IMG/VR virus record: IMGVR_UViG_3300037400_003188
Location: 57,014 to 121,013 of that record
Length of the DNA stretch: 64,000 bases
Source of the DNA: a virus
Lineage: Duplodnaviria; Heunggongvirae; Uroviricota; Caudoviricetes
Strand: one strand, 5' to 3'
Part shown: in pieces, positions 6,525 to 54,083 of the stretch
Layout of the letters: each line of letters opens with the position of its first letter
How positions within the stretch are numbered: position 1 is the stretch's first letter
Program-made: the position numbers and the translations under genes
The notes under the pieces: generated by a model
Told to the model about the DNA's origin: nothing
The model's database searches: none
Seen by the model: only the letters and a program-made list of their open reading frames with translations

Positions 6525-6753
6525 GTAATAGCCAGGATTCTGTACCTACTTCCATCATTAAACTATTCGTCCTACCCTGGAGGCGGTAATTTGGGTAACC
6601 CCCTATACTTGGACTTTCACTTCCAAATAAGTGTCCTGAACTTCCTCACCCAAAAACGGCTGTTTTTAGAGCGCGATGGACTGCGTGTATATATAAATAT
6701 ATGTCTTGATACAAACGGATCAACCAACGATATTTATAGTTAAATATTTTTTG

Positions 6754-6836
6754 TACCCCAGGTGGAAGTCGAATCCACAGAATCACCAAATTTTGAGTTT
6801 GGCTGCTTTACCTATTTGCATACCGAGGCGTATTTT
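6754..6836 (-). tRNA. tRNA-like gene; anticodon CAA if the fold is right, with atypical arms
   Basis: T-arm GTGGA-AGTCGAA-TCCAC on the plus strand (sense T-loop TTCGACT). Anticodon hairpin CCAAA-CTCAAAA-TTTGG. The acceptor pairs only with several G-U pairs. Confidence 0.3.
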
Positions 6837-8385: not shown

Positions 8386-8459
8386 GAGAAGGTAACCAGA
8401 ATCGAACTGGCATCACCTGTCTGGCAGGCAGGTGCACTAAACCGTTGTGCTATACCTTC
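8386..8459 (-). tRNA. tRNA-Gly(GCC)
   Basis: The acceptor arms GAAGGTA / TACCTTC are perfectly complementary. T-loop AATCGAA. Anticodon stem CCTGT/GCAGG with sense loop CTGCCAG. Confidence 0.55.
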
Positions 8460-8850: not shown

Positions 8851-9355
8851 TCAATTATATTGCTTTTAGTGGGGACAGGCTCATCGAAGAGACCGCTTCG
8901 GGTTTTTCAGACCCGCATGACTTACCAACTACATCACATCCCCATGTTAAAAACCATTCATACAATCATAGCGCTCTAATTGCAGATTTATCAGTAGCCG
9001 ACCTTACCAATCTTGAACAAACTACATTGGTTACCTACACCTGGTTCGTCGTCATTGAAGCGCCCACTCCAAGCAGGGTTTGAACCTACAGTTACTACCG
9101 AATGATTTTATTTTTAATCTCATAAGACTATCAGAGATTTTTGTTGGTATTGAGCCAGCCTCCAACGGATATAGCAACCGCCACCACGCAACTTGGGAGT
9201 CTAACCAACTTTATACAATTCACTATGGCTAAGAATTGTCTTTTAAATTTGTGCCTTCGGTGGAGTCCAACCACCATACCTCTTGGATTTCTGAGGCCCA
9301 CGCGTACCAACGCAGTGACAGTCAGCGATATACTGTATAAACTGGTATATTTTTG

Positions 9356-9447
9356 TGAGAGGAGAGGGACTCGAACCCCCCTACTGCAAGTCCAATACGA
9401 CAATTTGTGAACAGGGCAGATTTACAGTCTGCTGCCGTTATCCTCTC
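9356..9447 (-). tRNA. tRNA-Tyr(GTA)-like, type II with a very long variable region
   Basis: The acceptor arms GAGAGGA / TCCTCTC are perfectly complementary. Anticodon stem GCAGA/TCTGC with loop CTGTAAA. About 35 nt lie between the anticodon arm and the T-arm. Confidence 0.4.
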
Positions 9448-9477
9448 ATTATTTAAATTTCAATGTTCACATTTTTG

Positions 9478-9562
9478 AGACAGCAGTCGGATTCGAACCA
9501 ACGCGGGTATTGCTACCTCCAGATTTGCAGTCTGGCACCTTCAGCCGCTCAGTCATGCTGTC
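9478..9562 (-). tRNA. tRNA with GCA anticodon (Cys) and an extended variable region
   Basis: The acceptor arms GACAGCA / TGCTGTC are perfectly complementary. Anticodon stem CCAGA/TCTGG with sense loop CTGCAAA. T-loop ATTCGAA. Confidence 0.4.
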
Positions 9563-9640: not shown

Positions 9641-9714
9641 GCAGGTGCGGTAGGATTCGAACCCACGAAGACTTTCGTCCACAGTTTTGGAGACTGCTCG
9701 CGTTGGCCACTTGC
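9640..9714 (-). tRNA. tRNA-like gene (anticodon arm unresolved)
   Basis: The acceptor arms GCAGGTG / CACTTGC pair with one G-U. T-arm GGATTCGAACCCAC. The internal folding was not resolved by eye. Confidence 0.3.
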
Positions 9715-10158
9715 ATACACACCAGTATTAAAAAGATACCCTGAGAAGATTTTGTTTCTATGTTTCTATCTACCCAGGGTATTTGTTTGTTATATTTACC
9801 AATCTACTTTTAGTTAACAGAACACATAGAACAAGTTGAACGTCTAAACCAATAGCCGCCTTTCAATCCGTTATATTTGAAACACTTATTCATCATGTTA
9901 TTCTTTTTGTTTTAAAATTAATTACTACCCATTTTTTTAATTTTATTAATCTGTTCCCATATTATTTATGGTATTTTGTTTTCTTTTTCAATTATAAATA
10001 TACAAATAATTTAAAAAATATCAATATAAACTGATTTTTTTATTATTTTTTTTTGATCAACTTTTATTTTTACTCCTTTGACTAACTTGTTTTGTTACAA
10101 GATATACAAATTCGACAAACACTACAAATGTAATTCTCTAATATAATACCTTTCATAA

Positions 10159-11328: not shown

Positions 11329-11396
11329 AATTTTGAAATCTGGTGCAAAGGTACAATATTTTTTTAATATATAAAAATTTTGGGGAGAAAAAAAAT
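11329..11396 (-). promoter_or_regulatory. class-B conserved upstream element, copy 2
   Basis: aaatctggtgcaaaggtacaat...atataaaaattttggggag, immediately upstream of 10727..11320. Confidence 0.5.
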
Positions 11397-43040: not shown

Positions 43041-43087
43041 TAATTCAAATGATCAAAAAATGCCACGCAAATTCGCGTAGCATCTAG

Positions 43088-43161
43088 TACTGCAACTGAG
43101 ATTCGAACTCAGAATCTTCACCTTGAGAGGGTGACGGCTTAACCATTTCGCCTATAGCAGC
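43088..43161 (-). tRNA. tRNA-Glu(CTC)
   Basis: T-arm CTGAG-ATTCGAA-CTCAG. Anticodon stem TCACC/GGTGA with sense loop CTCTCAA. Confidence 0.5.
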
Positions 43162-43355
43162 ATATATAACCCACAACAACAGTGATCCTTCAACCTATAA
43201 TTTGAACACGGACAATGTTTGTCCTCACTATCATTCATACATGGGCAATTACCTTCGCACTTATTAATCCTATTAATTATAGCATTTACAACCTTTTCGT
43301 TTGGATTTAATATCCAACCATCCTTACAATTTAATCTCGCCTCATTTATTGTCAT
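43152..43355 (-). CDS. small Cys-rich protein between two tRNA genes
   Basis: ORF 43152..43397 trimmed to MTINEARL, because the annotated start lies inside tRNA-Arg. The protein contains CEGNCPCMNDSEDKHCPCSNYRLKDHCCCG. Confidence 0.35.
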   Translation of the reverse strand: MTINEARLNCKDGWILNPNEKVVNAIINRINKCEGNCPCMNDSEDKHCPCSNYRLKDHCCCGLYMLL

Positions 43356-43370
43356 TTTAAACAGTTTTTG

Positions 43371-43445
43371 TACCCCAGGAGAGGGTCGAACTCCCATTCT
43401 TGTCCTTCGTAGGGACCTGCGTTAAATCCATTGCGCCACTGGGGC
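43371..43445 (-). tRNA. tRNA-Arg(ACG)
   Basis: T-loop GGTCGAA (sense TTCGACC). Anticodon hairpin GTCC-TTCGTAG-GGAC, sense loop CTACGAA. Confidence 0.5.
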
Positions 43446-43468
43446 AAATTTAACGTATTGGCTAAAGA

Positions 43469-44236
43469 TTATTTATCATCTTGTAACGTTATCCTATTTC
43501 TGTGAAACCTATATGATTTCTTATTTAAAGAGCCAAAATTATCAGTTAATGTATGACAATTTGGGCATAATAATTCTAAATTATTGATTGTGTTATTAGT
43601 ACAATTTCCGTCTTTATGATGAATTTCTAATTGTATAGTATGAGTGTATTGATTCATTTCACCCCATCCACATTTTTGACATTTACAATCATATTTATTC
43701 ATTAGATATTTACGTATAAATAGTGGTATCTGTGTGGCTCCTCGTAGAAAATTTTCCCCATTCAGCCATCTTTTTATTTTATTCTTTTCATCAAATTCGT
43801 TTTTGCATTTGTTACAACAAAAATCTTTATTTCCGATAAATAACTTTCCGCATTGTTTACACGTTTTTAGTTCCTTTTTATTTTTTTGGGACAGCGTATT
43901 TGATGTTTTTAACCTCGATTCAATTGAACGCGTTCTATTAAAATTATTATAAGAGGCAGAACATGATTTTGAACAAAATTTATTATCACGCTGTTGATAT
44001 GATAATTTTTTCCCACAATACTTACAATATAATGGTTTATTATTATAATCTTCTTCAGTTATTTTCTTATCTATATAATCATATATATTAATATCAAAAT
44101 GTTTGATAACTTTTTCTATGAATCTATAGCCACTTCCATTATTTTTATATCCAAATTTTCGCAAAAAATCCATTTTTGTTTTACATTCTCGTAAAACATT
44201 AATAACTTCATCTTTTTTTATTTCGTTTATATCCAT
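43469..44236 (-). CDS. HNH homing endonuclease
   Basis: 255 aa, Cys-rich. HNH motif LEIHHKDGNCTNN...NLELLCPNCH. Confidence 0.8.
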   Translation of the reverse strand: MDINEIKKDEVINVLRECKTKMDFLRKFGYKNNGSGYRFIEKVIKHFDINIYDYIDKKITEEDYNNKPLYCKYCGKKLSYQQRDNKFCSKSCSASYNNFNRTRSIESRLKTSNTLSQKNKKELKTCKQCGKLFIGNKDFCCNKCKNEFDEKNKIKRWLNGENFLRGATQIPLFIRKYLMNKYDCKCQKCGWGEMNQYTHTIQLEIHHKDGNCTNNTINNLELLCPNCHTLTDNFGSLNKKSYRFHRNRITLQDDK

Positions 44237-44371
44237 GATTTATATCGTATTTATATATAAATATTTTTTTTGGGTGTAAAAAACTGACTGAAACCTTTAT
44301 TTTTACATTCTTTTTTCAATAAAATATATGTTCGAATAATAATAATAAACACCGTTGTGTTAATTTAAAAG

Positions 44372-44443
44372 GGGTCTGTGGTGGAGTCGAACCACCGTAT
44401 TGACGGCCACAACGTCACATTCTACCGTTAAACTAACAAACCC
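44372..44443 (-). tRNA. tRNA-His(GTG)
   Basis: T-arm GGTGG-AGTCGAA-CCACC. Anticodon stem TGACG/CGTCA with sense loop TTGTGGC. An extra 5' G (-1) is encoded, as in His tRNAs. Confidence 0.6.
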
Positions 44444-44564
44444 ATAAAAATACTCTCAGGGACGAACCAAATTTCAAAGAGTGACGTCAAATTCTTCTAA
44501 TTTCTGCATGTGGTGTTTTCTGGCACCCACAAGGTTTGAGAATATTAAATTTATATAGTAAAAG

Positions 44565-44652
44565 TAGGGGAAAAGGGGGTCGAACCCTTACACTACTATT
44601 ACTTCGCATATGCTTCTAAGGCATACATGTCTACCTATTCCATCATTCCCCC
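44565..44652 (-). tRNA. tRNA-Leu(TAG), type II
   Basis: T-arm AAGGG-GGTCGAA-CCCTT. Anticodon stem TATGC/GCATA with sense loop CTTAGAA. The variable arm is long. Confidence 0.6.
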
Positions 44653-44660
44653 ATATTTTG

Positions 44661-44731
44661 AGCGAACACCGAGGTTCGAACTCGGCTAACTGACTTGGGA
44701 AGCCAGAGCACTACCGCTATGCTATATTCGC
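44661..44731 (-). tRNA. tRNA-Gly(CCC)
   Basis: T-arm CCGAG-GTTCGAA-CTCGG. D-arm AGCA/TGCT. Anticodon stem CTGGC/GTCAG with loop TTCCCAA. Confidence 0.6.
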
Positions 44732-44998
44732 AATTAAAGAACACTGATTAACTGGTTCAGTGTTCGAAACCTCTGTAAATCTCTTACACTTGGTAAAAGA
44801 CAATAAGATTTACCACAGACGCGCTGGGACTCGAACCCATTCGCTTACCTAGGAACTACCAGGACATGCCTTCTACTCGCACTGTTTCTCCCGAACTAGT
44901 AAACGCACCTAACTGGCAAATCTGTTTTTAAAAGCAGGGCTAGAAATTCTTCATGGAATTCTCAACCCCGAAATGAATGTATTTGTACATCCAAGAAG

Positions 44999-45086
44999 CG
45001 GAGAGACAGAGGCTCGAACTCTGGCACGGTATCACCCGCCTAACACGTTAGCAATGTGTCCCCTTCACCAACTTGGGTACCTCTCC
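44999..45086 (-). tRNA. tRNA-Ser(GCT), type II
   Basis: T-arm CAGAG-GCTCGAA-CTCTG. Sense anticodon loop TTGCTAA. The variable arm is long (AGGCGGGTGATACCGTGC). Confidence 0.5.
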
Positions 45087-45194
45087 AATATTTCAACAAT
45101 ATGTTTCTGTTGGCCTTTCTCTTTACTCCCTACTCGTTCTCCTCGGCCTGTTTCTGTTTATGTTGAAAATATAACTAACTTATTATTAATATTA

Positions 45195-45290
45195 TGCGGA
45201 TACTCCCCGACTCGAACGGAGACCACGCTATCAACGTGTACTGGTGGTTTTCCTTACTACTCTATGTTTCCATAGCCAACCCATGTTATC
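45195..45290 (-). tRNA. tRNA-like gene with an inserted about-20-nt hairpin (CTATGGAAACATAG)
   Basis: Canonical T-arm CTCCG-TTCGAGT-CGGGG and plausible acceptor pairing, but about 64 nt lie between the acceptor and the T-arm. Confidence 0.25.
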
Positions 45291-45339
45291 CGTTACAGGG
45301 TTCCCGCTTGTTATCGCAAAGAACATCTTTGTTCATTGT

Positions 45340-45700
45340 TTTTCGGGAGTTGTTGTAGTCTGGACTCTATCTTAACCATATTAGAATCTTGCAAGATGTA
45401 TATTGTGTTACAGGATGGGGTTGCTGCACCATCTCTTACCGTATTGCTTCTATCGCATAATATACAATTCTAACTTAGGTTTCTCCTGTATAGTCTCTAC
45501 ACACTGTCTCTTATTGTTCTGGTCTGATTTGATGTTCTATTACGTACATCATATTGCAATGCACCACCAGCGTAGTTATCCAACAATAACATTGGCTCGG
45601 TATTAACATATTCATTTCTGAACTTAGTCTTCGCCGAATTAGGGAGGTTCTACTCTATAAGTTTCCTTATAGGCACTCAAATTGTTTAAGACCACTGCCT
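45340..45700 (-). repeat. about-360-bp noncoding element, copy 1 (paralog of 52790-53150)
   Basis: Shared blocks with copy 2: gttgtagtctggactct...catattagaatcttgcaagat, ttctaacttaggtttctcctgta...ctctacacactgtct, acattggctcggtatta, ccgaattagggaggttctact, cactcaaatt. Confidence 0.5.
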
Positions 45701-45861
45701 TACCAATTAGGCTTAAGTATCCAAAAAATTAAATAACACTTATTATGTATTACCGTTTAGATGTAGGCGTATTGGAGTCAAACCATTGTTCAGTGTGAGC
45801 ATCAGTCGTTCAATGCTTCTCGCCCCAACCTAAGTAATACTTTTAATATTTTTAGGTTTTT

Positions 45862-45886
45862 CAAGTTGTTTCCTTCAACTATAAAT
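45862..45886. repeat. hairpin motif AAGTTGTTTCCTTCAACTATAAA, copy 1
   Basis: Stem AGTTG/CAACT with loop TTTCCTT, followed by TATAAA. It is preceded by a T-run. Five copies lie in the tRNA region. Confidence 0.5.
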
Positions 45887-46106
45887 TTTGTTATCCTCGT
45901 GTCATACGGCATCGTTTCACCAAAGTTAAACCAGACAGTACTAAGGTAACTAAACGTCTTTGGGTTCGCTACATAAAGAATTACCAATATGTCAATCGTA
46001 CTATAGGAATGTCGCTTCCTACGCCTTAAGGTATATGATGCATTGTTTCACCCTACATCCCACATATAACCTTAGATAACAAATTTGGGTTTTAAAGTCG
46101 TTATAG

Positions 46107-46180
46107 TACCTCCTGCTGGATTCGAACCTGCACTACATAGATTCTTAGTCTATTACCTCTTCCAATTGGATTAAGGAGGT
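46107..46180 (-). tRNA. tRNA with AAG anticodon, type-I architecture
   Basis: The acceptor arms ACCTCCT / AGGAGGT are perfectly complementary. T-loop ATTCGAA. Anticodon stem ATAGA/TCTAT with sense loop CTAAGAA. Confidence 0.45.
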
Positions 46181-47065
46181 ATAAAAACACCGCTTTCTGA
46201 TACGTAATCTCCAGGTGTGTATTAAAAATAATACTGAGCAGGGTTTACTCATTTAAGTGTTCCTCACACATACATGAGCACTGACTTTTACATTCCGTGC
46301 AGAAGGTGGTAACTAGTATTGTCCTCACTTCAAAACCTGACAAAGGTTCCTTACATACCTCGCGATATATAATCAGTATTATAAAAGTTAAGTTAGATTC
46401 GTGATGCGCTCTATTATTCGCAACACCTCTTTACGGACAATTTGATAATTCCAATGATACGGATGATTCAACATATTCTCGCTAACCTTTCATAGCGCTT
46501 CATGCATCATTAAAAATTAACAAATAGAAAAGAATATTCCGTTACAACTAATTCGTTTGTCACTCCTCTTATTAGATATGAGATTGTCCTCTAGGCAGTT
46601 TTTTACAATCCCGAATTAGTAACCTGCAAAGAATGCCTCCCTATACAGGTAAGAATAATAGACTTCTTCCTCTAACTTTAGAGACTGTGACAGGACTTGA
46701 ACCTGTATTCTTTACTAACTTACTTTACCTCGCCAAAGGTGATGCAGCCGTTTACCACCTGTTCCAGATGGTGTCAATCATCATAAGTGTTCATTCTTAT
46801 CCAATGTCGGGGTGTTATTATATTTGGCGTATATAATATCCTTCCTACACAGCCTTATGGTTGCAAACTACGACTTCCACGTAACTAATCCCCCATGATT
46901 ATGGGACCGTGCTTGATCCTCCCAACCTTGTTCTTACTAGGGCTATGCACTGTACATTACACAACCACTTCATACTAAAGGACACCATCCAGACTAATTA
47001 GCACCTGCAGTATTGCTAACCGTACATCTGAAATTTTACGGGCACATATTACACCAATTCGCGAG

Positions 47066-47141
47066 TGGATCGGGTGGGGTTCGAACCCACAGACCTTCTG
47101 AATGCAAATCAGACGTTCTAGCCAATTGGAACTACCAACCC
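47066..47141 (-). tRNA. tRNA-Cys(GCA)
   Basis: T-arm GTGGG-GTTCGAA-CCCAC. D-arm GTTC/GAAC. Anticodon stem TCTGA/TCAGA with sense loop TTTGCAT. Confidence 0.55.
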
Positions 47142-47366
47142 AAGGTGCAAGTTTTCGAATTTAGGGTTACACGAAACTCGCTAATATTAACCTTTTCAAG
47201 AATAAGAATGACTAGTTCCTATTTTGTCTTGTCAACCAATTTATTTAGGCCCTTTCCCATGTACCACTTCAACTCTTCTTTAAGTTATCATATAGTTAGT
47301 CAAACTATTACTTTCACTTAACGTGGAGCAACCTGCTTAATTGGTAATACGTGTTGCTTCAGATTG

Positions 47367-47454
47367 CTTCTGGAACGGGACTCGAACCCGCAACGGCCTC
47401 TCGGCTCTCTCTAGCGTGACAGGCTAGCATGTTGACCATTTACACCATCCAGAA
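47367..47454 (-). tRNA. type-II-like tRNA with GTC (Asp) anticodon
   Basis: The acceptor arms TTCTGGA / TCCAGAA are perfectly complementary. T-loop ACTCGAA. Anticodon stem CTAGC/GCTAG with loop CTGTCAC. The variable arm is about 19 nt. Confidence 0.4.
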
Positions 47455-47598
47455 ATTTTAGTTATAATTATTTAGAGTTGCCACAACTAACAACTTTCTT
47501 ACCCCAAGCGTCTACCATTTCGTCATCTAGAACTATGTCCTAGAGGAGAACTCAAACCTAACATACATACATGCTTCCTCGAAGTCTGATAGTCTTTG

Positions 47599-47671
47599 TG
47601 GCCCCAATTTGATTCGAACAAATGTGACGACTTTGTAAGAGTCGCATACTCAACCACTATATGATGGGACC
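47599..47671 (-). tRNA. tRNA-Val(TAC)
   Basis: T-arm ATTTG-ATTCGAA-CAAAT. Anticodon stem CGACT/AGTCG with sense loop CTTACAA. Confidence 0.6.
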
Positions 47672-47838
47672 AAAATTAGAAAATTTTAGAGGCTAACACC
47701 ATTCTATCCAATGAGATGTTATTTAAGATTTGTTAACGGGAGTTTCCTCCAAGACCATTGTACACTAGTCACGTTCGGGCTGCGTCTTTAGTTTACCGTA
47801 CACCTCTCCAGTTTGTACATACTGGAATATTTTCATTG

Positions 47839-47910
47839 TACCGAGAGATGGATTTGAACCACCGACTATTCGCGTATGAGACGAATGTTCTGCCACTGAA
47901 CTATCTCGGC
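47839..47910 (-). tRNA. tRNA with CAT anticodon (Met or Ile2)
   Basis: T-loop ATTTGAA. Sense anticodon loop CTCATAC. The acceptor arms ACCGAGA / TCTCGGC are near-complementary. Confidence 0.5.
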
Positions 47911-48058
47911 ATTTGTAGGCAAAATAGGAGTCGAACCTACGTGTAACCAACTACTCTTTCTACTCGGTATCAGCGAGAGGAGATATTTGCCTATACACAC
48001 TGCCTAAAGGGAACTTGACAACTGACAGTGTTCGCGCATAAGTTATCTAACCTCATTG

Positions 48059-48129
48059 TTGCCCCACGAGGAGTCGGACCTCGCTTTTCAGAACCAAAAT
48101 CTGACGTAATACCGATATACCATAAGGCA
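48059..48129 (-). tRNA. tRNA-Gln(TTG)
   Basis: T-arm CGAGG-AGTCGGA-CCTCG. Anticodon stem TCAGA/TCTGA with sense loop TTTTGGT. Confidence 0.55.
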
Positions 48130-48164
48130 AGATTTAGTTCATATTGTTTTGTAAGGGAGACGAA

Positions 48165-48240
48165 CCTTTCGGACTCGAACCGAATTCACTAAAGAGCATC
48201 ACTTAAACCTCTGCCAATGCTTAAGTCCGACCCAAAAAAC
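48165..48240 (-). ncRNA. tRNA-like element E1 (paralog of 51285-51365)
   Basis: T-arm-like hairpin TTCGG-ACTCGAA-CCGAA. TCGGACT/AGTCCGA are perfectly complementary over 7 nt. Shared blocks with E2: ttcactaa.agcatcac and tgccaatgcttaa. No canonical cloverleaf found. Confidence 0.3.
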
Positions 48241-48592
48241 AATACACGATTTTATAGGTGATCGACCTATCACTCTGAACGGTAAATCTTAAACCAAGTG
48301 TCCATATCTCTATAGCCAGATACCAGCATCAGGTCTTATTGACCATCAGTCAACCTGTGATTAGTAGGATTTATGTCCGTCTTTCCAGAGTGTCATATGT
48401 GAGCCATAACCTCCCCCTCGGATTTCTCTTTCATTGGGGGTACCCTTCAGCAATAATTGGGCCGCTGGTTTTTACAAGTTGTCCTTCTTATTTAGTCATA
48501 GTATTTGCATATTTAAGGGTTGCGACCCCTCGTGTACGGTCTGCCTCCGCCCTATGTTAGAAACTATAACTAATTGGTTATCAATAAGTTAG

Positions 48593-48668
48593 AGCCTTCT
48601 CTCAGATTCGAACTGAGGGTAATTCCATATTACAAGTATGGCGGAGTCGACCACTGTCCCAAGAAGGC
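48593..48668 (-). tRNA. tRNA-Thr(TGT)
   Basis: The acceptor arms GCCTTCT / AGAAGGC are perfectly complementary. T-arm CTCAG-ATTCGAA-CTGAG. Anticodon stem CCATA/TATGG with sense loop CTTGTAA. Confidence 0.65.
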
Positions 48669-49273
48669 AATTTGCTCAAAATCGTAAAACTTAACAAGTA
48701 TTATGTGTTGTCTCTCAGGTAACGCTCTCATAATAAATTTGTTAAGAAAGGGGACTCGGTTAATGAGCAGTTATACACGCTTTCTCCCTTTTTTAGAGTT
48801 TGTTCTGAACACCAGATTTAAAGTGTTTACTCACTAAATTAGGTAAGCCTTACTGTCCACAAACGTCCTATGGACCCTCCGACCTTAACTGGTGACGTTA
48901 TACCAACCTCAGGCTATACCTAAAAAAGAGATACGGCTCTAAACCACGCACACGTAGAGGACTCAACGTCGTATCGGAACATTATGGAGTTACCCATTTT
49001 GTACCATAGTCCTGCGCTGATAGCAACCTTATAAATCAGCAGTCACAAATTTAGTACCTTTTACGGTTTTGTGTCTTTTCCCATCAAGGAAATGATGGTG
49101 GGGGTGGTAGTAATTTTATGGTTGATTAGACCCATGCGGTAAAAACTACAAACCTTGCGGCTTTTCATATTGAAATGCTTAGTCAGGCGGGAATCGTATC
49201 GCTAATCGCCACTAGCGTCCATCTTATTGAGGGAGAGTCAACCGACGTTAAATCGTAGTCGGAATTTGTGATG

Positions 49274-49366
49274 CTGGCAGGGTGGGATTCGAACCCACGG
49301 TGGATTGTTAATCATCGGCTTAACAGGCCGAACCGTTCGGCCACTACGGCAACCTACCAATCATAC
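49274..49366 (-). tRNA. Ser-like tRNA with an apparent 8-nt anticodon loop
   Basis: T-arm GTGGG-ATTCGAA-CCCAC. The D-region TGGCCGAACGGTTCGGCC resembles Ser tRNAs. The anticodon hairpin is TGTTAA-GCCGATGA-TTAACA. The acceptor was not resolved. Confidence 0.3.
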
Positions 49367-49382
49367 TATTTATATTAATTTG

Positions 49383-49454
49383 TTGCGGAGGTGGGGATCG
49401 AACCCACGGCCTTCAGGTTATGAGCCTGACGAGATACCTCTTCTCTACTCCACG
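49383..49454 (-). tRNA. initiator-like tRNA-fMet(CAT)
   Basis: T-arm GTGGG-GATCGAA-CCCAC. D-arm GAGA/TCTC. Sense anticodon loop CTCATAA. The acceptor has a C1·A72 mismatch, the hallmark of bacterial initiator tRNA. Confidence 0.5.
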
Positions 49455-49460
49455 ATATTG

Positions 49461-49535
49461 TAGACCGAGAGGGGCTTGAACCCACGACCTTCTGATTATG
49501 AGTCAGACGCTACTTACCAACTGAGCTATCGGTCT
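49461..49535 (-). tRNA. tRNA-Met(CAT), elongator or Ile2-type
   Basis: The acceptor arms AGACCGA / TCGGTCT are perfectly complementary. T-loop GCTTGAA. D-arm TAGCTCAGTTGGTAAGTAGCG. Anticodon stem TCTGA/TCAGA with loop CTCATAA. Confidence 0.65.
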
Positions 49536-49671
49536 AAAAGAGTTTTTTCTATTCTCATAGGAACTTTATAACCTACCTGACATTATACGATTCAGCATCA
49601 CACAGTGCATATGGTATGCAGGGATGAAAGTTACGATTCAGAAATTACCGCGAATTATTTCTGACAATTAT

Positions 49672-50568
49672 TTATTTTATATCTTTTTTCCGATAAGGTA
49701 AACCGTAATATTTACACCACTTACTAATCGTTCGATCAGAAACACCGAATTCTTTACCTAAAGCCCTAAATGAATATTTTTTAACCAACTCTAATAACTT
49801 TTCTTTTGCTGGTCGTTCAACTTTACGCTGCTTTAAACTCGCTTCATTCTGAGCACTTGTTCTTCCATTGTCTAATCGTTCTTTTTTAATATAACCTTTC
49901 GGTTTCTTAAATATCCCAAATCTTTTACCACTTTCTATTTTTCTAAAATTATCCAAATTTAAAGTCTTGTCTATTAAATTCCAATCATTCTTAACAGTAT
50001 CCTCTGTATAACGAATAATCTTCCAGCCTAAACTTTGAATTAATTCATCTTTTTTATTATCTCTCTCTTGTCTTTCATTTTCAATTTCATGTTGTGAGCC
50101 ATCTATCTCTACAACCAATTTAATCTCATTAAAAGCAAAATCAGCATAATATGGAAAAAAAGATTTTTCTCTTTCTATTTCGTATTTTTTATTAATACCT
50201 CTATCTTTTAGATATTTAATAAAACATTTTTCTGGGTACGATGTATTATTTTTTGATAATCTCCACGCTGTTTGTTCTGGATGTTCTTTCATAAATTTTA
50301 AACGGGCCTCCCTAACTTTTGATTTTGCCTCTTCGGAGAGCCTAAATCTTTCTGGATATTTTTTATGTGCTAACTTATTAGCCTCTGAAAAATTACGAGT
50401 TATACCATGTAATAATTTTAACCGAATCCATTGATTCGCTTTAATATTATACTTATCCGCAATCTCTCGTATCGATAAGCCTTCTAGGTACTCTTTTCGC
50501 ATTTTTTCTTTCTCTTTTTCAGAGAATAAATAGTCATACTTTGTATTGTTTTTATGTGCCATATTCAT
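49672..50568 (-). CDS. HTH plus Vsr/DUF559-like endonuclease (putative homing endonuclease) inside the tRNA array
   Basis: 298 aa. N- and C-terminal helix-turn-helix-like segments (LSIREIADKYNI; GKEFGVSDRTISKWC). Central VVEIDGSQH...GWKIIRYTE resembles the Vsr/DUF559 PD-(D/E)xK motif. Confidence 0.5.
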   Translation of the reverse strand: MNMAHKNNTKYDYLFSEKEKEKMRKEYLEGLSIREIADKYNIKANQWIRLKLLHGITRNFSEANKLAHKKYPERFRLSEEAKSKVREARLKFMKEHPEQTAWRLSKNNTSYPEKCFIKYLKDRGINKKYEIEREKSFFPYYADFAFNEIKLVVEIDGSQHEIENERQERDNKKDELIQSLGWKIIRYTEDTVKNDWNLIDKTLNLDNFRKIESGKRFGIFKKPKGYIKKERLDNGRTSAQNEASLKQRKVERPAKEKLLELVKKYSFRALGKEFGVSDRTISKWCKYYGLPYRKKDIK

Positions 50569-50653
50569 TTATATTTCTATATATAAATACATTTTAATAC
50601 CAAAAAACGAACACTTTTTTTCCAAAAAATAGAAAATAAACTGATGTGTTTAG

Positions 50654-50740
50654 TAGCGCCAACGAGATTCGAACTCGTGAGGAGATTACTCTCCAAGCAG
50701 CGTGAAAGGCTGCCGACCTAAACCACTAGTCGATAGCGCC
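50654..50740 (-). tRNA. type-II-like tRNA with TTC (Glu) anticodon
   Basis: T-arm ACGAG-ATTCGAA-CTCGT. The acceptor arms GGCGCTA / TGGCGCT pair with two G-U. Anticodon stem GCAGC/GCTGC with loop CTTTCAC. The variable arm is about 18 nt with a GGAGA/TCTCC stem. Confidence 0.4.
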
Positions 50741-51284
50741 ATTTTAGTCCATACAGAACCCCATTGGAAAGATATGGACATTGACAACGAGTTAACATTA
50801 TGTCGTTGTTCTTTTTTAAGTGAGTATTCAAAGGGTTAACCGAGTTTCACGGTCTTTTTACATCGAGCGTCCCGCAATCGTTACTTGCGCCTTGGGGTAC
50901 CTCTCACCACATACATTTAAATGTGCGCACCCAGGTATCATTCGTATTCCTCGACTTCTTTCCTGGGTCGGTCGTTTATTTCCGCTTCCCTTTACTAGAC
51001 CTTTCTTTGTCTCCCCCGTCTTGAACGGCGTCCACTTGCGTGGATTAAATTCTGATTCGGGAAATACCCATATAAGTGTAAACCACATAGTGCTGTTTTT
51101 GGCCTATCCCATCATTCTATGTCCATCTTCATCTAATGATGTCGCTCTCCTCACGTGAAAGAGCCTTTATTTCAATAGTGACCCGCACGGCTTCGTCCTC
51201 GGCTAAAATGGAAACGGCTGTAACTTCTAGTCTTTATTAATGGTTTTTTATAAGTAAATATTAGTTCATATCACTATATAAGGA

Positions 51285-51365
51285 CTGATGCTTTTGGACT
51301 TTAACCAAATTCACTAATAGCATCACACATCTTGCCAATGCTTAACACCAGCCAAAGAGTAATAC
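51285..51365 (-). ncRNA. tRNA-like element E2 (paralog of 48165-48240)
   Basis: Hairpin TTTGG-ACTTTAA-CCAAA. Shares the ttcactaatagcatcac and tgccaatgcttaa blocks with E1. Confidence 0.3.
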
Positions 51366-51397
51366 AATTCGAGATTTTCTCCCCGACCAGGTTTATT

Positions 51398-51424
51398 TAA
51401 GTTGTTTTCCTTCAACTATAAAAT
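51398..51424. repeat. hairpin motif, copy 2
   Basis: aagttgttttccttcaactataaaa. Confidence 0.5.
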
Positions 51425-51583
51425 ATTAACACTATCCGCATCATAAGCCTTCCATGGATACTTATGAATTATTCGAATGATAAAACATTTGTTTTGTGAA
51501 CCACCACTATTTTTCAAGATATACGGTTGTGGATATGTTAATATAGTAAAATAACTTCAGTTATAATACTTTTATTAGTTTTT

Positions 51584-51607
51584 AAAGTTGTTTCATTCAA
51601 CTATAAG
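51584..51607. repeat. hairpin motif, copy 3
   Basis: tttttaaagttgtttcattcaactataag. Confidence 0.45.
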
Positions 51608-51716
51608 TTTGAGAGGAATAGGCTCTCACCTCTCTATGTGGTCTTCTGCCATCCACTTTGTTACTCTTTGGCTCGTACTGCCGCCTATAAGCGCTTTTGG
51701 ACTTTTATTGGTTTTT

Positions 51717-51740
51717 GTAAGTTGTTTTCCTCAACTAATG
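51717..51740. repeat. hairpin motif, copy 4 (diverged)
   Basis: gtaagttgttttcctcaactaatgg. Confidence 0.4.
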
Positions 51741-52480
51741 GGTCTACTGACCTTGAAGATTCTCACTTCACGTTTAAAACGTCTTCTAAAGTTTACAATC
51801 ATCATCTAGAATCGTGATTAGAAATCAGTAGATGGGTTAAGTGCCCGAAGCATCCCAGTTCTAACTTTTATCTTCGCATCACCAGCGCAGCACTTATAAA
51901 AACAGAACAGTAAATTTGCGAACTACGGACTTGACTAAGCGCTTATTAGAAATATAAAGACTATCCATTGTCAATCGGGGCTTACCTGAGATTATTTACT
52001 CAAGCGATTTCTCTACCACCTCGCCTGGAGAACGATTCCAGATTATCAAACTATTTCCTTACACGTTCATCGTTTTAACATACGATTTCCTTATACCTGT
52101 CATGTTGCGTTGTACATTACGGCTCCTCGCGGAATAGGTTCGTCATACCTACGAAGGGGAAACCCCAAAAATTCGCCGAAACCATCAAAAGCGACAAACT
52201 GCGTATCTCGACATCTCATAGAATATTACATTGACGCGTTATAATATTCAATCTCGCCCTATTTAGGTTGCTAGTACTGTTACTGAAACTAAATTGAATT
52301 AGTTTTGATTGTCGGGTAGGCGAGATTCGAACTCACGGCCTCCTGAACCCAAATCAGGCATCTTAGACCAACTGGACCACTACCCGTTTTTGTCTAGATA
52401 GAGAGACTCGAACTCCCGATACCTTGCTTCCAATGCAAGAATGTTACCAACTCCACCATATCTAGATTTTTTTAGTTTTT

Positions 52481-52509
52481 TAAAGTTGTATGTCCTTCAA
52501 CTATAAATC
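52481..52509. repeat. hairpin motif, copy 5
   Basis: ttttttaaagttgtatgtccttcaactataaatc. Confidence 0.45.
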
Positions 52510-52789
52510 AGGCGACGATTGAATTAAAATCAATAAGTTATACTTTAATCTAGAATTGTATAACCATATGCTTATTGGGCATATAAGTGCTACCTTTTCA
52601 TCACCAATATTATTAAAACCATGTGTTTTAAACCATGTACCGCCTCTGGGACTTGAACCCAGACGAACATCACTGCCCAAAAGATTTTCTTTACTACTTT
52701 ATATTACTATAACAAAATAACAGCATCGTCTAACGACTTCTCGTTCAGCGGGTCTTTAGCCTACTAAGGGAGTCAAACCCATTTTGTTA

Positions 52790-53150
52790 TTTCTTGTAGT
52801 CTGGGATTTATCTTAGCCATATTAGAATCTTGCAAGATATAAATTACACGTTCACTGCCTTAATGGTTTATCAGAGAGCTCATTGTTCTGTAATTTATAA
52901 TTCTAACTTAGGTTCCTCCTGTAAATTCTCTACACACTGTCTATCTTCGTGGCACTACAATCTCATTACTATTATTTCAAGTAAGAGCAAGCCCATTCCA
53001 CTATTTTAACATTGGCTCGGTATTATCCAAACGCGTTATTGGTTAGCGCTACGCCATTTCGTATTAGGTTGGATTTCCACCGAATTAGGGAGATTCTACT
53101 ATGGAATTTCTTGCCATAGCACTCAAATTTCTTAAGTCTTTCTTGTCTAC
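52790..53150 (-). repeat. about-360-bp noncoding element, copy 2 (paralog of 45340-45700)
   Basis: tcttgtagtctgggatttatcttagccatattagaatcttgcaagat, ttctaacttaggttcctcctgta...ctctacacactgtct, acattggctcggtatta, ccgaattagggagattctact, cactcaaatt. Confidence 0.5.
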
Positions 53151-53443
53151 CTATTCCAACAAGGCGGCAAAAGAAGATAGTTAAAATGCGTTTCACAACG
53201 TGGAACTAACATATCTTTTGATCAAAACGAGTAATCATGGTTACGCTAGGATAAAATCCGTTGGATGCAACATGTTTCAGAATTGACAGGTTCCATATAT
53301 AAATCTTATTCACTTACCCAACCTTAGTCTGCAGAATTTGCTATGTCGGCCAGAGTGTAATAAGAAAAATAATCAATTTAATTTTCTTTAGCCAATACGT
53401 CAAAGATCATATTCGAAAAATGCTCGTAAAAACTTGCTTGTCT

Positions 53444-53516
53444 CGAAATCTGCTGCAAAAGTACAACAAATTTTTGACATATAAAAATTTTGGAGCAAAA
53501 ATTTTCATTTTTTTTT
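53444..53516 (-). promoter_or_regulatory. class-B conserved upstream element, copy 6 (tRNA-associated variant)
   Basis: aaatctgctgcaaaagtacaac...catataaaaattttggagcaaaaattttcatttttttt. Confidence 0.5.
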
Positions 53517-53517
53517 A

Positions 53518-53589
53518 GTGGCGGACCTCGATTCGAACGAGAACTTGAGATTATGAGACTCGTATGTTACCAGTTACACCAATCCGCAA
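53518..53589 (-). tRNA. tRNA-like gene with a CTCATAA anticodon-type loop but a weak anticodon stem
   Basis: The acceptor arms TGGCGGA / TCCGCAA are near-complementary. T-loop ATTCGAA. The anticodon stem has only 3 bp. Confidence 0.3.
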
Positions 53590-53924
53590 TATTCGTGATT
53601 CGGGTGAGACTCGAACTCACAACCTACAGATTAGTCTGCTACTCTCGCTTTTATACGAGCCAACTCCATGAGTTGTTGTAGTCTGGACTCTTTCATTACC
53701 ATGAGACTTAAATCTTTTAGGCACTTCCTATAGAGTCTCTACGCCATTTATCAGATTACTCTGAACTTAGTAAGCCATCGCCAACTCCTACGTCTCCGTA
53801 AGATAGGTTTCTGTTTCTTAGGGAAGTTCTACATTCGGAGTTTCCTCCGATGCACTCCTATTTTCAAAGTCTGTTGCGCTATCCATTGCGCCACCGAACC
53901 ATTATGTTTCAAAGATCACTTTTG

Positions 53925-54004
53925 GAAAAGTATCGGGATTCGAACCCGATTGTTCCTCACTTACGTAATCAAGGCGAGTACGTTATCTGTACCTAACTAC
54001 TTCT
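53925..54004 (-). tRNA. tRNA-like gene (anticodon arm unresolved)
   Basis: T-arm ATCGGG-ATTCGAA-CCCGAT. The acceptor arms AAAAGTA / TACTTCT are near-complementary. Confidence 0.3.
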
Positions 54005-54008
54005 CTGA

Positions 54009-54083
54009 TTTTCAAATCTGGTGCAAAGGTACAACTTTTTTTTGGAATATAAAAATTTTGGAGCAAAAATTTTCATTTTTTTA
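54009..54083 (-). promoter_or_regulatory. class-B conserved upstream element, copy 7 (tRNA-associated variant)
   Basis: aaatctggtgcaaaggtacaac...aatataaaaattttggagcaaaaattttcattttttt, upstream of the 43-54 kb tRNA array. Confidence 0.5.

Follow-up and report, generated by a model that had tools for sequence, protein, structure and literature searches.

The transfer RNA (tRNA) arrays closest to the one described here belong to the Lak megaphages, whose genomes hold 24-56 tRNAs, some of them with "enigmatic introns" (PMC6784885, PMC8346664). A published table for the baboon Lak genomes lists a single tRNA intron, in Tyr. We analysed a stretch of 64 kb, called the window hereafter (positions 57,014 to 121,013 of the IMG/VR virus record IMGVR_UViG_3300037400_003188, Caudoviricetes), which contains two groups of tRNA genes. 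These very probably represent two phage tRNA clusters on a Lak-related huge-phage genome of Prevotella/Bacteroidales, giving a near-complete, AT-tuned decoding set. The array is another lineage of the known huge-phage tRNA arrays, and its size is ordinary for such phages. Its interest lies in details, namely introns, long variable arms, the ...A|CUAA junction of one intron, elements devoid of a D-arm and a link to a Ro60-fold protein, all of which are leads drawn from sequence.

Anticodon-loop group I introns of subgroup IC3 occur in tRNA-Leu(UAA) of cyanobacteria and plastids and in tRNA-Ile of Azoarcus. Presumably, the family described below resembles these classical introns. A smaller phage system is the tRNA gene cluster of T4 which, as we take it, includes the homing endonuclease SegB. 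Group I introns in primase genes of crAss-like phages have already been published (PMC7886860). Bacterial and phage Ro60 proteins have tRNA-like Y RNAs encoded nearby as partners (Chen et al. 2014, PMC4201824). No published account of group I introns in phage tRNA genes was found in a largely open-access literature, nor any description of long-variable-arm class-I phage tRNAs in the searchable literature, outside of which most subscription journals lie.

Thirty-two tRNA genes in two clusters

Genes were called with ARAGORN (default mode, then with introns allowed), the Rfam tRNA model RF00005 (gathering score 29 bits) and a scan for T-arms. ARAGORN in default mode found 29 tRNA genes, all on the minus strand, 20 of them in a main block (43087-53589) and nine in a second block (6753-9724). 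RF00005 at its gathering threshold gave 27 matches (29-68 bits, E 9e-13 to 0.05); 26 coincided with ARAGORN genes (34.8-68.4 bits) and one was a weak extra match at 47916-47992 (29.3 bits). These 26 genes exhibited the 7-bp acceptor stem, D-arm, 7-nt anticodon loop, T-arm and score above 29 bits of a canonical bacterial tRNA gene, as did Ser(GCU) at 44998-45086, which Rfam detected in E-value mode at 45.5 bits. Gly(UCC) at 7243-7321 and Thr(UGU) at 48592-48668 were called by ARAGORN only; the latter is kept as a tRNA in the related contig L007. With introns allowed, ARAGORN added three split genes (45196-45722, 52637-53168 and 53595-53900) and one dubious call (46681-46854). The T-arm scan revealed orphan T-arms at 53949, 48184, 47940, 46706, 9380 and 9089, all of them accompanied by an acceptor-like 5' strand of complementary sequence. 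Altogether, the window holds 32 tRNA genes, of which 29 are continuous and three are interrupted behind U34 by predicted group I introns; about ten tRNA-like elements come in addition. The main block accounts for 23 tRNA genes and about six tRNA-like elements, the second block for nine and about four. Apart from the 29.3-bit match, the non-canonical elements lie below the canonical features listed above.

The first-pass annotation, made by eye, had placed about 25 tRNA or tRNA-like genes in the main block and about ten in the second, 30-35 in all on a phage genome. This structural part, coordinates and totals included, stood: ARAGORN returned 29 genes rather than a handful, and Rfam supported 27-28. 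The suspicion that spacers hide more genes was borne out by the three split tRNAs and the roughly ten non-canonical elements, and the reported initiator-like tRNA with a C1·A72 mismatch is real. Other details had to be corrected. T-arms do not recur every 80-150 nt; the mean gene spacing in the main block is ~450 nt and the longest spacer 1.57 kb. Cys and Lys had been assigned to the main block, but Cys and three Lys genes sit in the second one, and the main-block "Lys-like" gene is the intron-split gene in the Arg(UCU) slot. Four tRNAs with a CAU anticodon are present in the window instead of three Met tRNAs. The group I introns, the long variable arms and the published intron-bearing arrays of Lak had gone unrecognised.

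The features of the main block and the Ro60-fold gene upstream of it are listed below (related phage loci carry L numbers; ORF, open reading frame).

43087..43161 (-): tRNA-Glu(CUC); ARAGORN, Rfam 63.2 bits
43152..43397 (-): Cys-rich ORF of 81 aa flanked by tRNAs; matches no family, exact copy present on a Logan contig
43370..43445 (-): tRNA-Arg(ACG); ARAGORN, Rfam; the orthologue in L005, L006 and L007 has 90 nt and a long variable arm
43469..44236 (-): free-standing HNH endonuclease gene, 255 aa; Pfam; 95.6% DNA identity in L008, replaced in other relatives
44371..44442 (-): tRNA-His(GUG); ARAGORN, Rfam
44564..44652 (-): tRNA-Leu(UAG); ARAGORN, Rfam
44660..44731 (-): tRNA-Gly(CCC); ARAGORN, Rfam
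44815..44925 (-): conserved tRNA-like element, T-arm ATGGG-TTCGAGT-CCCAG; ~86% identical in L005 and L007
44998..45086 (-): tRNA-Ser(GCU); ARAGORN, Rfam
45196..45722 (-): intron-split tRNA-Ser(UGA), exons 45722-45688 and 45252-45196; ARAGORN intron mode
45253..45687 (-): predicted group I intron I1, 435 nt, after U34, ends in G; sub-threshold RF00028 match
45757..45833 (-): element Z, diverged third copy of the X/Y tRNA-like family
46106..46180 (-): tRNA-Leu(AAG); ARAGORN, Rfam
46681..46854 (-): 174-nt element with 7-bp acceptor-like stem and perfect T-arm; 94% identity to L005
47065..47141 (-): tRNA-Ala(UGC); ARAGORN, Rfam
47366..47454 (-): tRNA-Asp(GUC), 89 nt, long variable arm GCC-GAGA-GGC, G73; ARAGORN, Rfam 54.8 bits
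47598..47671 (-): tRNA-Val(UAC); ARAGORN, Rfam
47838..47910 (-): tRNA(CAU), elongator Met or Ile2; ARAGORN, Rfam 66.9 bits
47915..48005 (-): tRNA-Ile(GAU)-like element with no normal D-arm; Rfam 29.3 bits, L005 homologue
48058..48129 (-): tRNA-Gln(UUG); ARAGORN, Rfam
48150..48233 (-): element Y, tRNA-like, no anticodon arm; fold, identical in L005 and L012
48592..48668 (-): tRNA-Thr(UGU); ARAGORN alone, tRNA in L007
48669..49272 (-): 604-nt ORF-free spacer, candidate structured RNA; no Rfam match
49273..49359 (-): tRNA-Asn(GUU), 87 nt, long variable arm GATT-AAC-AATC, G73; ARAGORN, Rfam
49382..49454 (-): initiator-like tRNA(CAU), C1·A72, A11-U24; ARAGORN, Rfam 61.4 bits
49460..49535 (-): tRNA(CAU), elongator Met or Ile2; ARAGORN, Rfam 60.7 bits
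49672..50568 (-): free-standing endonuclease gene, 298 aa, DUF559/Vsr-like and helix-turn-helix domains; Pfam; absent here in L005 and L012
50653..50740 (-): tRNA-Glu(UUC), 88 nt, long variable arm GGAGA-GTAA-TCTCC; ARAGORN, Rfam 51.2 bits; 98.7% in L005, L012 and L013
50741..52103 (-): ORF-poor segment of 1.36 kb holding element X and two hairpin-motif copies; absent from L005, L012 and L013, no Rfam match
51275..51354 (-): element X, paralogue of Y
52311..52386 (-): tRNA-Pro(UGG); ARAGORN, Rfam
52392..52465 (-): tRNA-Pro(UGG), second copy; ARAGORN, Rfam
52637..53168 (-): intron-split tRNA-Leu(UAA), exons 53168-53134 and 52688-52637; ARAGORN intron mode
52689..53133 (-): predicted group I intron I2, 445 nt, after U34, ends in G; core blocks shared with I1, RF00028 17.8 bits
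53446..53514 (-): promoter-like repeat, second copy
53518..53589 (-): tRNA(CAU), weak; ARAGORN, Rfam 36.6 bits; a relative has an 89-nt Met tRNA with long variable arm here
53595..53900 (-): split tRNA gene occupying the Arg(UCU) slot; exon 1 53900-53867, exon 2 53634-53595 given a mature loop of CUUCUAA
53635..53866 (-): predicted group I intron I3 of the short subfamily, 231-232 nt; ends at A53635, with the nearest G at 53636
53925..54004 (-): tRNA-like element, follows directly on the first promoter; missing in L012 and L016
54014..54082 (-): promoter-like repeat, first copy, head of the array
58621..59949 (+): predicted Ro60/TROVE-fold protein gene (Pfam DUF2828 and DUF7788); Pfam, AlphaFold2, Foldseek

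The second block comprises the following.

6753..6829 (-): tRNA-Leu(CAA); ARAGORN, Rfam 47.8 bits
6843..6915 (-): tRNA-Lys(CUU); ARAGORN, Rfam 59.9 bits
6919..6992 (-): tRNA-Lys(UUU); ARAGORN, Rfam 59.2 bits
6998..7073 (-): tRNA-Lys(UUU), second copy; ARAGORN, Rfam 68.4 bits
7161..7233 (-): tRNA-Arg(CCU); ARAGORN, Rfam 59.4 bits
7243..7321 (-): tRNA-Gly(UCC), 79 nt; ARAGORN alone, no Rfam match at gathering
7329..8309 (-): free-standing HNH endonuclease gene, 326 aa; Pfam HNH and DUF2116 treble clef
8386..8459 (-): tRNA-Gly(GCC); ARAGORN, Rfam 58.9 bits
8777..8849 (-): tRNA-like element, 7-bp acceptor GGCTTCG/CGGAGTC and T-arm, no recognisable anticodon arm; sequence, fold
8870..8943 (-): tRNA-Phe(GAA)-like element; sequence, fold, no ARAGORN or Rfam call
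9073..9089 (-): orphan T-arm GTAGG-TTCAAAC-CCTGC in a 900-nt non-coding stretch; T-arm scan
9355..9447 (-): tRNA-Tyr(GUA)-like element lacking a D-arm; T-arm scan, fold
9477..9562 (-): tRNA-Cys(GCA), 86 nt, long variable arm GGTA-GCAA-TACC, U73; ARAGORN, Rfam 52.2 bits
9572..9640 (-): promoter-like repeat, third copy (TTTTTGCTCCAAAATTTTTATA ... GTTGTATCTTTGCA), TTTG / TAnnTTTG type
9641..9724 (-): tRNA-Trp(CCA), 84 nt, long variable arm GAC-GAAA-GTC, G73; ARAGORN, Rfam 34.8 bits

The initiator-like tRNA, as read from its sequence, also has two of the three anticodon-stem G-C pairs. The tRNAs are co-oriented behind repeated promoter-like sequences of Bacteroidota type, and the arrays are syntenic but cassette-mosaic among relatives. 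The 22-nt core of the 69-nt promoter-like repeat, with its boxes TTTG and TAnnTTTG, which we take to be the Bacteroidota promoter type, occurs in five copies against 0.01 expected by chance (9606-9627, 11370-11391, 53480-53501 and 54048-54069 on the minus strand, 57778-57799 on the plus strand). Three copies head tRNA clusters and two precede protein genes; the repeat is also present before protein genes in L005, L007 and L008. Another recurrent sequence is the hairpin motif TATAGTTGAAGGAAAACAACTT with an A-rich tail, found 15-40 nt upstream of tRNA or tRNA-like genes (minus-strand sense: 45849-45888, 51396-51421, 51571-51610 and 52468-52489). The motif might represent another class of promoter or a signal for processing.

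With the intron-split and D-arm-less genes included, each of the 20 amino acids is represented in the set. Under strict wobble rules, 88.5% of the 13,530 codons in the ORFs of the window can be read, and the UNN-rich anticodons of the set match the preference of the phage for codons ending in A. A role in replacing host tRNAs or in escaping their depletion or codon bias, already proposed in the first-pass annotation, would fit the sequence. We propose that the clusters would be transcribed as long polycistronic precursors from host-type promoters and cut by host RNase P and RNase Z. CCA would be added afterwards, since it is not encoded (the 3' flanks read N73-C-A/T-A/T). The introns would splice themselves out, yielding Ser(UGA), Leu(UAA) and probably Arg(UCU). 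The UNN-rich decoding set might then sustain phage translation where the tRNAs of the host fit poorly or have been depleted or cleaved, and homing endonucleases together with mobile introns may drive the exchange of tRNA cassettes between related phages.

The intron-split tRNA genes

The genes for Ser(UGA), for Leu(UAA) and in the Arg(UCU) slot are predicted to be split after U34 by group I introns of 232-445 nt, termed I1, I2 and I3. The Rfam group I model RF00028 has a gathering score of 50 bits. I1 matched it below that score, at 37 bits (E 1.5e-6) over model positions 1-253, the full model; I2 scored 17.8 bits (E 0.097) and I3 gave no match. The same scan of the homologous loci of Lak-B1, IAS virus and Atu_ph07 returned no match either. 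Because the homologous IAS and Lak introns went without a match, the model appears insensitive to this intron family, and the family call rests on the sub-threshold match of I1 together with homology and splice-site logic.

I1, I2 and I3 align with one another and with three outside elements, six in all. Core blocks of 52-69 nt are shared by I1 and I2 at 83-90% identity, and the I1 core is 89% identical to the IAS virus primase intron. In I1, I2, I3, Lak-B1 and IAS, P1 forms between the exon end ...CUU and GAG(U), with the last exon U opposite a G; the register is the same in L016 and in the metagenome homologues. All aligned elements exhibit a P2 hairpin that is GAAA-capped except in I2; its stem differs in every copy, by compensatory changes among I1, I2 and I3. 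P3 reads CUCC/GGAG, but UUCC/GGAA in I3, a compensatory change. The GUAGAGACU core and the J8/7-P7 sequence are common to six of the six elements, and a CCUAAG...UAUGG tetraloop-receptor motif was seen in I1, I2, I3, the second Lak-B1 intron and the IAS intron. A motif scan of the window spacers for further introns of this family returned only I1-I3.

The last intron base is a G in I1 (...GUAGUAAG|G) and in I2 (...GUAGUAAAG|A). After splicing in silico, the Ser, Leu and Lak-B1 Leu products were called canonical tRNAs. The predicted ligated junctions are ...GGUCUU|GAAAACC for Ser, i.e. ...GGUCUU|GAAAACCAC, and ...AGACUU|AAAAUCU for Leu, i.e. ...AAAGACUU|AAAAUCUUU. In L012 and L013, the corresponding Leu and Arg slots are occupied by intron-less genes, a homologous tRNA-Leu(UAA) and a tRNA-Arg(UCU). 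The Ser(UGA) genes of L005 and L007, considered as intron-less alleles that might fix the bounds of I1, turned out to be different genes.

The family extends beyond the window. In IAS virus, a crAss-like phage, the element lies between two coding-sequence fragments annotated as "DNA primase", and joining the exons at the predicted sites gives a single frame, ...VTLRL|KIYQPFNKKGYKW. The insertion site in IAS (L002, NC_049978.1, locus ~1181-1779), AGACUU|AAAAUU, resembles the tRNA-Leu(UAA) anticodon loop, GACUU|AAAAUC. The sequences suggest that the intron family may have moved between a tRNA gene and a protein gene via the same short target. Lak-B1 (L001, MK250020.1 289633-292697, locus 1172-1915) has a tRNA-Leu(UAA) with two introns, one of 309 nt in the D-loop and one of 348 nt in the anticodon loop, and the three-exon product is canonical. 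A scan of IMG/VR with the J8/7-P7 14-mer yielded at least 30 loci that also bear other core motifs. At least about 25 of them lie in intron-split tRNA genes, at least 16 in Leu(UAA) and others in, for example, Ala, Glu, Ser and CUA/UUA suppressor tRNAs. To judge from these sequences, the introns are probably members of a mobile family common in phage tRNA genes and shared with protein genes of crAss-like phages. The "enigmatic" tRNA introns of Lak, at least for the tRNA-Leu of Lak-B1, would then appear to be ordinary mobile group I ribozymes. Standard tRNA finders undercount phage tRNAs: three of the 32 were missed here, as was the two-intron Leu of Lak-B1.

I3 showed a splice-site anomaly. 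Its host gene occupies the slot that holds Arg(UCU) in relatives, and the ARAGORN assignment "Lys(ttt)" for 53595-53900 was ruled out by synteny and by homologues favouring the Arg(UCU) slot. A canonical Arg(UCU) arises only if I3 ends in A53635 (...GUAGCAGA|CUAA); ending at the neighbouring G53636 would leave an 8-nt loop, CUUACUAA. The predicted junctions are ...ACAGACUU|CUAAUCUGU for the A end and ...ACAGACUU|ACUAAUCUGU, with the 8-nt loop, if the omega-G is used. I3 departs from the omega-G rule (last base G) if its product has a 7-nt loop. In a metagenome scan, the ...CAGA|CUAA junction recurred in the short subfamily of ~230 nt, there within another tRNA body (L373, L379), and the copy in L378, ...UAAA|CUAA, has no G at all. 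Longer tRNA-Arg(UCU) relatives carry the normal G, as ...UAUG|CUAA (L372, L375) or ...UAAG|CUAA (L377). The P7 pair that presumably binds the terminal G, assigned by analogy with Tetrahymena, is unchanged in I3. I3 may be a natural omega-A intron, may give rise to a tRNA with an 8-nt loop or may be a recently spread, splicing-dead copy. The ...A|CUAA junction would accordingly be of interest as a natural omega-G exception or as a source of 8-nt-loop tRNAs.

Two further observations concern split genes. In L016 (10860-10970), the first tRNA slot holds another tRNA, split after ...CCUU by an I3-type intron with the guide sequence UAGGAGUGC; the contig ends inside the intron. The ARAGORN call "Tyr(ata)" with an 80-nt intron at 46681-46854 was rejected in view of poor D and variable arms, a missing U33 and an intron far too short for group I. 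It was retained as a conserved tRNA-like RNA. RNAalifold, run on three orthologues of this 174-nt element, gave one compensatory pair and a broken T-arm, and was uninformative.

Long variable arms, tRNA-like elements and a Ro60-fold protein

Five class-I tRNAs of 84-89 nt, namely Asp, Asn, Glu(UUC), Cys and Trp, have variable regions of 14-19 nt that form hairpins of 3-5 bp. The arms of Cys, Trp, Asp and Glu(UUC) are capped by GNRA loops; the Asn loop is not GNRA. ARAGORN assigned to all five the 7-bp acceptor and 5-bp T stems. Their discriminators are G in Asp(GUC), G in Asn(GUU), A in Glu(UUC), U in Cys(GCA) and G in Trp(CCA). U73 fits Cys identity, and G73 fits Asn, Asp and Trp. Because the discriminators match the amino acid of the anticodon, charging by the cognate synthetase would be favoured over charging as Ser, Leu or Tyr.

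In relatives, the arm is retained in Glu and Asn, while Asp is short (73-78 nt); Arg(ACG) and one Met are long in relatives and short in the window. The stems of the Asn arm are wholly different between the window (GATT-AAC-AATC), L007 (GTA-GCAA-TAC) and phiKZ (GGC-GAAA-GCC). Two scans of IMG/VR yielded at least 122 tRNA-Asn and at least 94 tRNA-Cys genes of at least 82 nt. They represent at least 107 (Asn) and at least 63 (Cys) distinct long sequences, with GNRA loops in 51% and 40%, respectively, among the matches listed. The same loci (L019-L252) carry long-arm Ile, Thr, Met, Lys, Asp, Glu and Trp tRNAs, many of them on contigs of 100-500 kb. The long-arm class-I tRNA is a widespread phage form. 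For current work on tRNA-targeting defence, such arms offer a direct handle on possible differences between phage and host tRNAs.

The hairpins with Ile(GAU), Tyr(GUA) and Phe(GAA) anticodons are exactly those missing from the canonical set. In the Ile and Tyr elements a normal D-arm is absent and an extended anticodon arm is followed on its 3' side by a D-loop-like UUGG motif. The Ile(GAU)-like element (47915-48005) consists of an acceptor, the extended anticodon arm with the loop CTGATAC, a D-loop-like AGTTGG 3' of the arm, a T-arm and A73; it is 97.8% identical in L005, where ARAGORN calls a 91-nt tRNA-Ile. The Tyr(GUA)-like element (9355-9447) has 7/7 acceptor pairs, an extended anticodon arm with the loop CTGTAAA, a small variable-region hairpin, a T-arm and an A discriminator. 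The Phe(GAA)-like element (8870-8943) has an acceptor, a 3-bp D stem and the anticodon arm CGGGT-CTGAAAA-ACCCG, but an aberrant T-arm with a bulged stem and a 6-nt loop.

Elements X, Y and Z combine an acceptor-like stem, a D-like arm and a T-arm; an anticodon arm is absent. Y folds with the stem CGGACTT/AGGTTCG plus an outer GGG/CCC, and is identical in L005 and L012, where the neighbouring DNA is 86-91% identical and the deoxynucleoside kinase (dNK) proteins of the phages are 85% identical. Between X and Y, both the closing stem and the T-stem show compensatory changes. Searched against Rfam, including YrlA, tRNA and transfer-messenger RNA, X and Y gave no match at E<=1, and Y none at E<=10. 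The single YrlA match in the window scan (16.7 bits) overlaps ordinary tRNAs. When 3.3 Mb of other phage loci were searched with a regular expression, the family gained no members beyond the three paralogues.

A gene at 58621-59949 keeps its syntenic position in all relatives. It lies some 4.6 kb upstream of the array, at distances of 6.4-12.8 kb to X, Y and Z. Its DUF2828/DUF7788 protein was modelled by AlphaFold2 with a pLDDT of 81. In a Foldseek search with this model, the top 13 PDB matches were all Ro60/TROVE proteins, including the Ro60 of Thermus phage phiLo (E 2e-8 to 4e-5). The model therefore predicts a Ro60/TROVE fold. It was the fold search only that pointed to Ro60; by sequence, phmmer against PDB (a single unrelated weak match, E 0.2) and NCBIfam gave nothing. 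Homologues of the protein number in the hundreds at ~65% identity on contigs of roughly 100 kb, presumably the size typical of crAss-like phages. By analogy with known Ro60 partners, X, Y and Z are candidate partners of this protein, no more than candidates. A Ro60-fold protein near anticodon-less tRNA mimics would suggest a role for some of the highly expressed intergenic RNA of megaphages.

The carrier phage, rival readings and comparison with known systems

The carrier appears from its sequence to be a gut phage of very large size, related to the Lak megaphages of Prevotella as a separate lineage rather than as Lak sensu stricto. The window encodes a primase, an SbcD-like exonuclease, a PIF1 helicase, HNH and other homing endonucleases, a polyvalent-protein ADP-ribosyltransferase domain, Hsp70, GrpE and dNK (Pfam, PHROG). 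The top tblastn matches of Hsp70 were Lak-A and Lak-B phages of Prevotella, at 59% identity. The dNK homologues range from metagenomic phage relatives, at 97% graded down to 73%, to proteins of Prevotella, Paludibacteraceae and other Bacteroidales at ~62%, and since this series passes into Bacteroidales proteins, a Bacteroidales host is indicated. The lineage is considered separate from Lak because the 11-kb region gave no megablast match among GenBank phages and because GC content is 31-42% in the window against about 26% in Lak. A 476-aa ORF gave no tblastn match in phages, and in IMG/VR no match was found for a 158-aa flanking ORF (protein search) or for an exact intron 25-mer.

The tRNAs recur in unchanged order in L005/L012, L007 and L013, where DNA identity is 80-98% and some cassettes are replaced. 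The clusters enclose three free-standing endonuclease genes (HNH at 7329-8309 and 43469-44236, DUF559/Vsr-like at 49672-50568), and the relatives differ at such sites by replacement or insertion of whole cassettes. Exchange driven by the endonucleases would probably yield cassette differences of this kind.

Several side observations may be added. In the match list of dNK (41565-42167), host-lineage proteins stand directly below the phage relatives, which suggests capture from the host lineage. Two paralogous large genes resembling homing endonucleases lie among the replication genes (19001-20170 and 37543-38541; PHROG 559/681, E 2e-97 and 8e-57) and add to a high load of mobile elements. Hsp70 (DnaK) and GrpE are encoded at 22664-24619 and 40372-40854 and DnaJ in a relative (L010 828-2003), jointly a complete chaperone set. 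In Lak-B4, B7 and B8, the Hsp70 match is in two pieces over 2.4 kb (MK250023.1 401048-403446 and others), compared with 1.8 kb in Lak-A; this suggests that the dnaK gene of Lak-B may carry an intron or intein. The contigs of L014 and L016 stop within 350-500 nt after the gene preceding the array (window equivalent 54000-54360). Because contigs of relatives often end at the start of the array, such arrays are likely under-assembled in metagenomes.

How should the region be read as a whole? A bacterial chromosomal tRNA island or a prophage remnant, in place of a lytic megaphage, is extremely improbable. The close cellular homologues of dNK, Hsp70 and GrpE and the host-like promoters would be in line with it, but the gene content is phage-like across the 64 kb, the closest Hsp70 matches are Lak megaphages, and the 100-150 kb contigs of relatives share these phage genes and, in the parts that were read, are free of bacterial core genes. 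The GC content and the position of all genes and tRNAs from 1 to about 54.8 kb on one strand argue in the same direction. We also find it unlikely that much of the array is decaying, with the non-canonical elements and perhaps the gene of I3 as functionless pseudogenes left by endonuclease and intron rearrangement. Such a process would be consistent with strongly mosaic arrays in which cassettes are swapped or inserted among close relatives, with several endonuclease genes in the array, with the failure of the non-canonical elements in ARAGORN and Rfam, with the missing G at the expected splice site of I3 and with the absence of the element at 53925-54004 from L012 and L016. Decay hardly explains, however, why the Ile(GAU)-like element and Y are 97.8% and 100% identical in a relative with 80-91% flanking identity, why the D-arm-poor elements hold just the missing anticodons, with an A73 that fits Ile and Tyr, or why the ...A|CUAA junction of I3 recurs in independent tRNA bodies from other metagenomes.

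Somewhat more credible, although still tentative, is the idea that the region is mainly a source of non-coding RNA. Cuts by RNase P and RNase Z at the tRNAs and at X, Y and Z would free spacer RNAs, some tRNA-like elements would partner the Ro60-fold protein, and decoding would be a partial role. Together, tRNAs and ORFs occupy less than half of 43-54 kb, the spacers are conserved like the tRNAs (91-94% in relatives for 48669-49272) and so is Y; X and Y keep their tRNA-like arms through compensatory changes between paralogues; and the Ro60/TROVE-fold gene lies upstream in synteny, as in systems elsewhere whose tRNA-like partner RNAs are encoded near the gene (PMC4201824). On the other hand, X and Y match no Rfam family, YrlA included, and were not found in the other phage loci. 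Their topology is unlike YrlA, as the RNA ends form an acceptor-like stem here, and the YrlA motif GNCGAA(N)G was not found by eye. No structure is established for the long spacers, and decoding fully explains the 29 high-scoring tRNAs. A doubtful proposal is that the unusual tRNAs, whether with GNRA-capped long arms or devoid of a D-arm, are counter-defence variants that evade nucleases reading the class-I shape while keeping charging and ribosome function. Discriminators that fit the anticodon's amino acid, a variable-arm hairpin that survives complete replacement of its stem, the spread of the form in phages and the existence of defence systems cutting tRNAs in the variable or anticodon loop, which are documented (PMC13096335, PMC12673091), would all suit it. 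Yet no defence system or nuclease specificity is tied to the long-arm tRNAs of the window, and cognate charging is itself predicted from sequence. The arm comes and goes within the lineage (Asp, Arg(ACG)), so that neutral insertion of a stable hairpin would fit too, and the class II-like D-loops may point to descent from Tyr, Ser or Leu genes by a change of anticodon, with no defence role. Broader still, and improbable in our view, is a phage-specific structural repertoire, as opposed to copied host-type tRNAs, comprising GNRA-armed class-I tRNAs (recurrent in unrelated phages, from phiKZ to gut megaphages), D-arm-less Ile/Tyr/Phe decoders, anticodon-less Ro60-linked mimics and Arg(UCU) introns that end in A or leave an 8-nt loop, which together would form a toolkit for translation and RNA quality control shaped by phage-host conflict over tRNAs.

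We therefore return to two tRNA clusters of a Lak-related phage with a near-complete decoding set, against which some of our data also weigh. For Ile(GAU), Tyr and Phe, the window offers non-canonical elements only, and these were accepted as tRNAs by neither tool. I1 scored below the gathering threshold of RF00028 and I3 was missed; the latter lacks a G where a normal 7-nt loop needs it, so that one of the 32 genes may be non-functional. Much of the 11 kb outside the tRNAs is conserved and unexplained, and "tRNA array" may cover only part of the role of the region. The codon-bias argument is one-sided, drawn from phage codons only. In the 64-kb window, no suppressor is found among the 32 tRNAs, unlike in typical Lak genomes, nor is there a sign of stop-codon recoding (ORF coverage would rise from 68.3% to 70.5% if TAG were read through). 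Lastly, the expression, processing, splicing and aminoacylation of the products are predictions from the DNA sequence.

Among known systems, the T4 cluster of eight tRNAs likewise contains free-standing homing endonuclease genes and varies in its cassettes among relatives. It is not known to have tRNA introns, and the endonucleases here are HNH and DUF559/Vsr-like, not GIY-YIG. The introns share with bacterial tRNA introns (survey PMC13011429) the 34/35 insertion after U34, the U·G pair in P1, the small size with no ORF, the GAAA-capped P2, the CCUAAG...UAUGG receptor, the GUAGAGACUA core and a AAGAUAUAGUC-like J8/7. They differ in being phage-borne, in occupying three tRNAs of one array and in belonging to a family also present in the IAS virus primase; moreover, an A takes the place of the final G in I3 and its closest homologues.

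The long-arm tRNAs resemble class II tRNAs (Leu, Ser, Tyr) in their hairpin-forming variable arm of more than 10 nt and in class II-like D-loops, e.g. GAGCGGCTGAAGG, but their anticodons are GUC, GUU, UUC, GCA and CCA, with fitting discriminators. In allo-tRNAs (Mukai et al. 2017, PMC5389517), acceptor and T-stem measure 8/4 or 9/3, whereas here they are 7/5 and the arm is usually GNRA-capped. The closest counterpart is tRNA-Asn(GUU) of phiKZ (NC_004629, 269557-269645, L017), also 87 nt long with G73 and 74.7% identical over its full length, which has a GNRA-capped arm. The phiKZ gene belongs to a phage of another host phylum, encodes CCA and has a variable-arm stem of unrelated sequence. With Ro60 and its YrlA/Y RNAs (PMC4201824), the window shares a Ro60-fold gene near small RNAs mimicking the acceptor, D and T arms of tRNA. 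Here, X and Y have no match to Rfam YrlA (RF02553), lie farther from the gene and have another strand topology, and the protein is of the divergent DUF2828 family.

With the Lak megaphages (2019, PMC6784885; Crisci et al. 2021, PMC8346664; Al-Shayeb et al. 2020, PMC7162821), finally, the carrier has in common the predicted Prevotella/Bacteroidales host, tens of tRNAs in a few regions, some of them intron-bearing, and large non-coding stretches. For most Lak genomes, reassignment of TAG to Gln along with CUA and UUA suppressor tRNAs has been reported; the carrier differs from them in that no CUA/UUA suppressor tRNA and no sign of TAG recoding occur in the 64-kb window. Beyond the published Lak reports, the data presented here add the spread of the group I family, the long-arm class-I tRNAs, the predicted A end of I3 and a Ro60-fold protein near tRNA mimics. 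A tRNA-Leu of Lak-B1 holds introns of the family found in the window.

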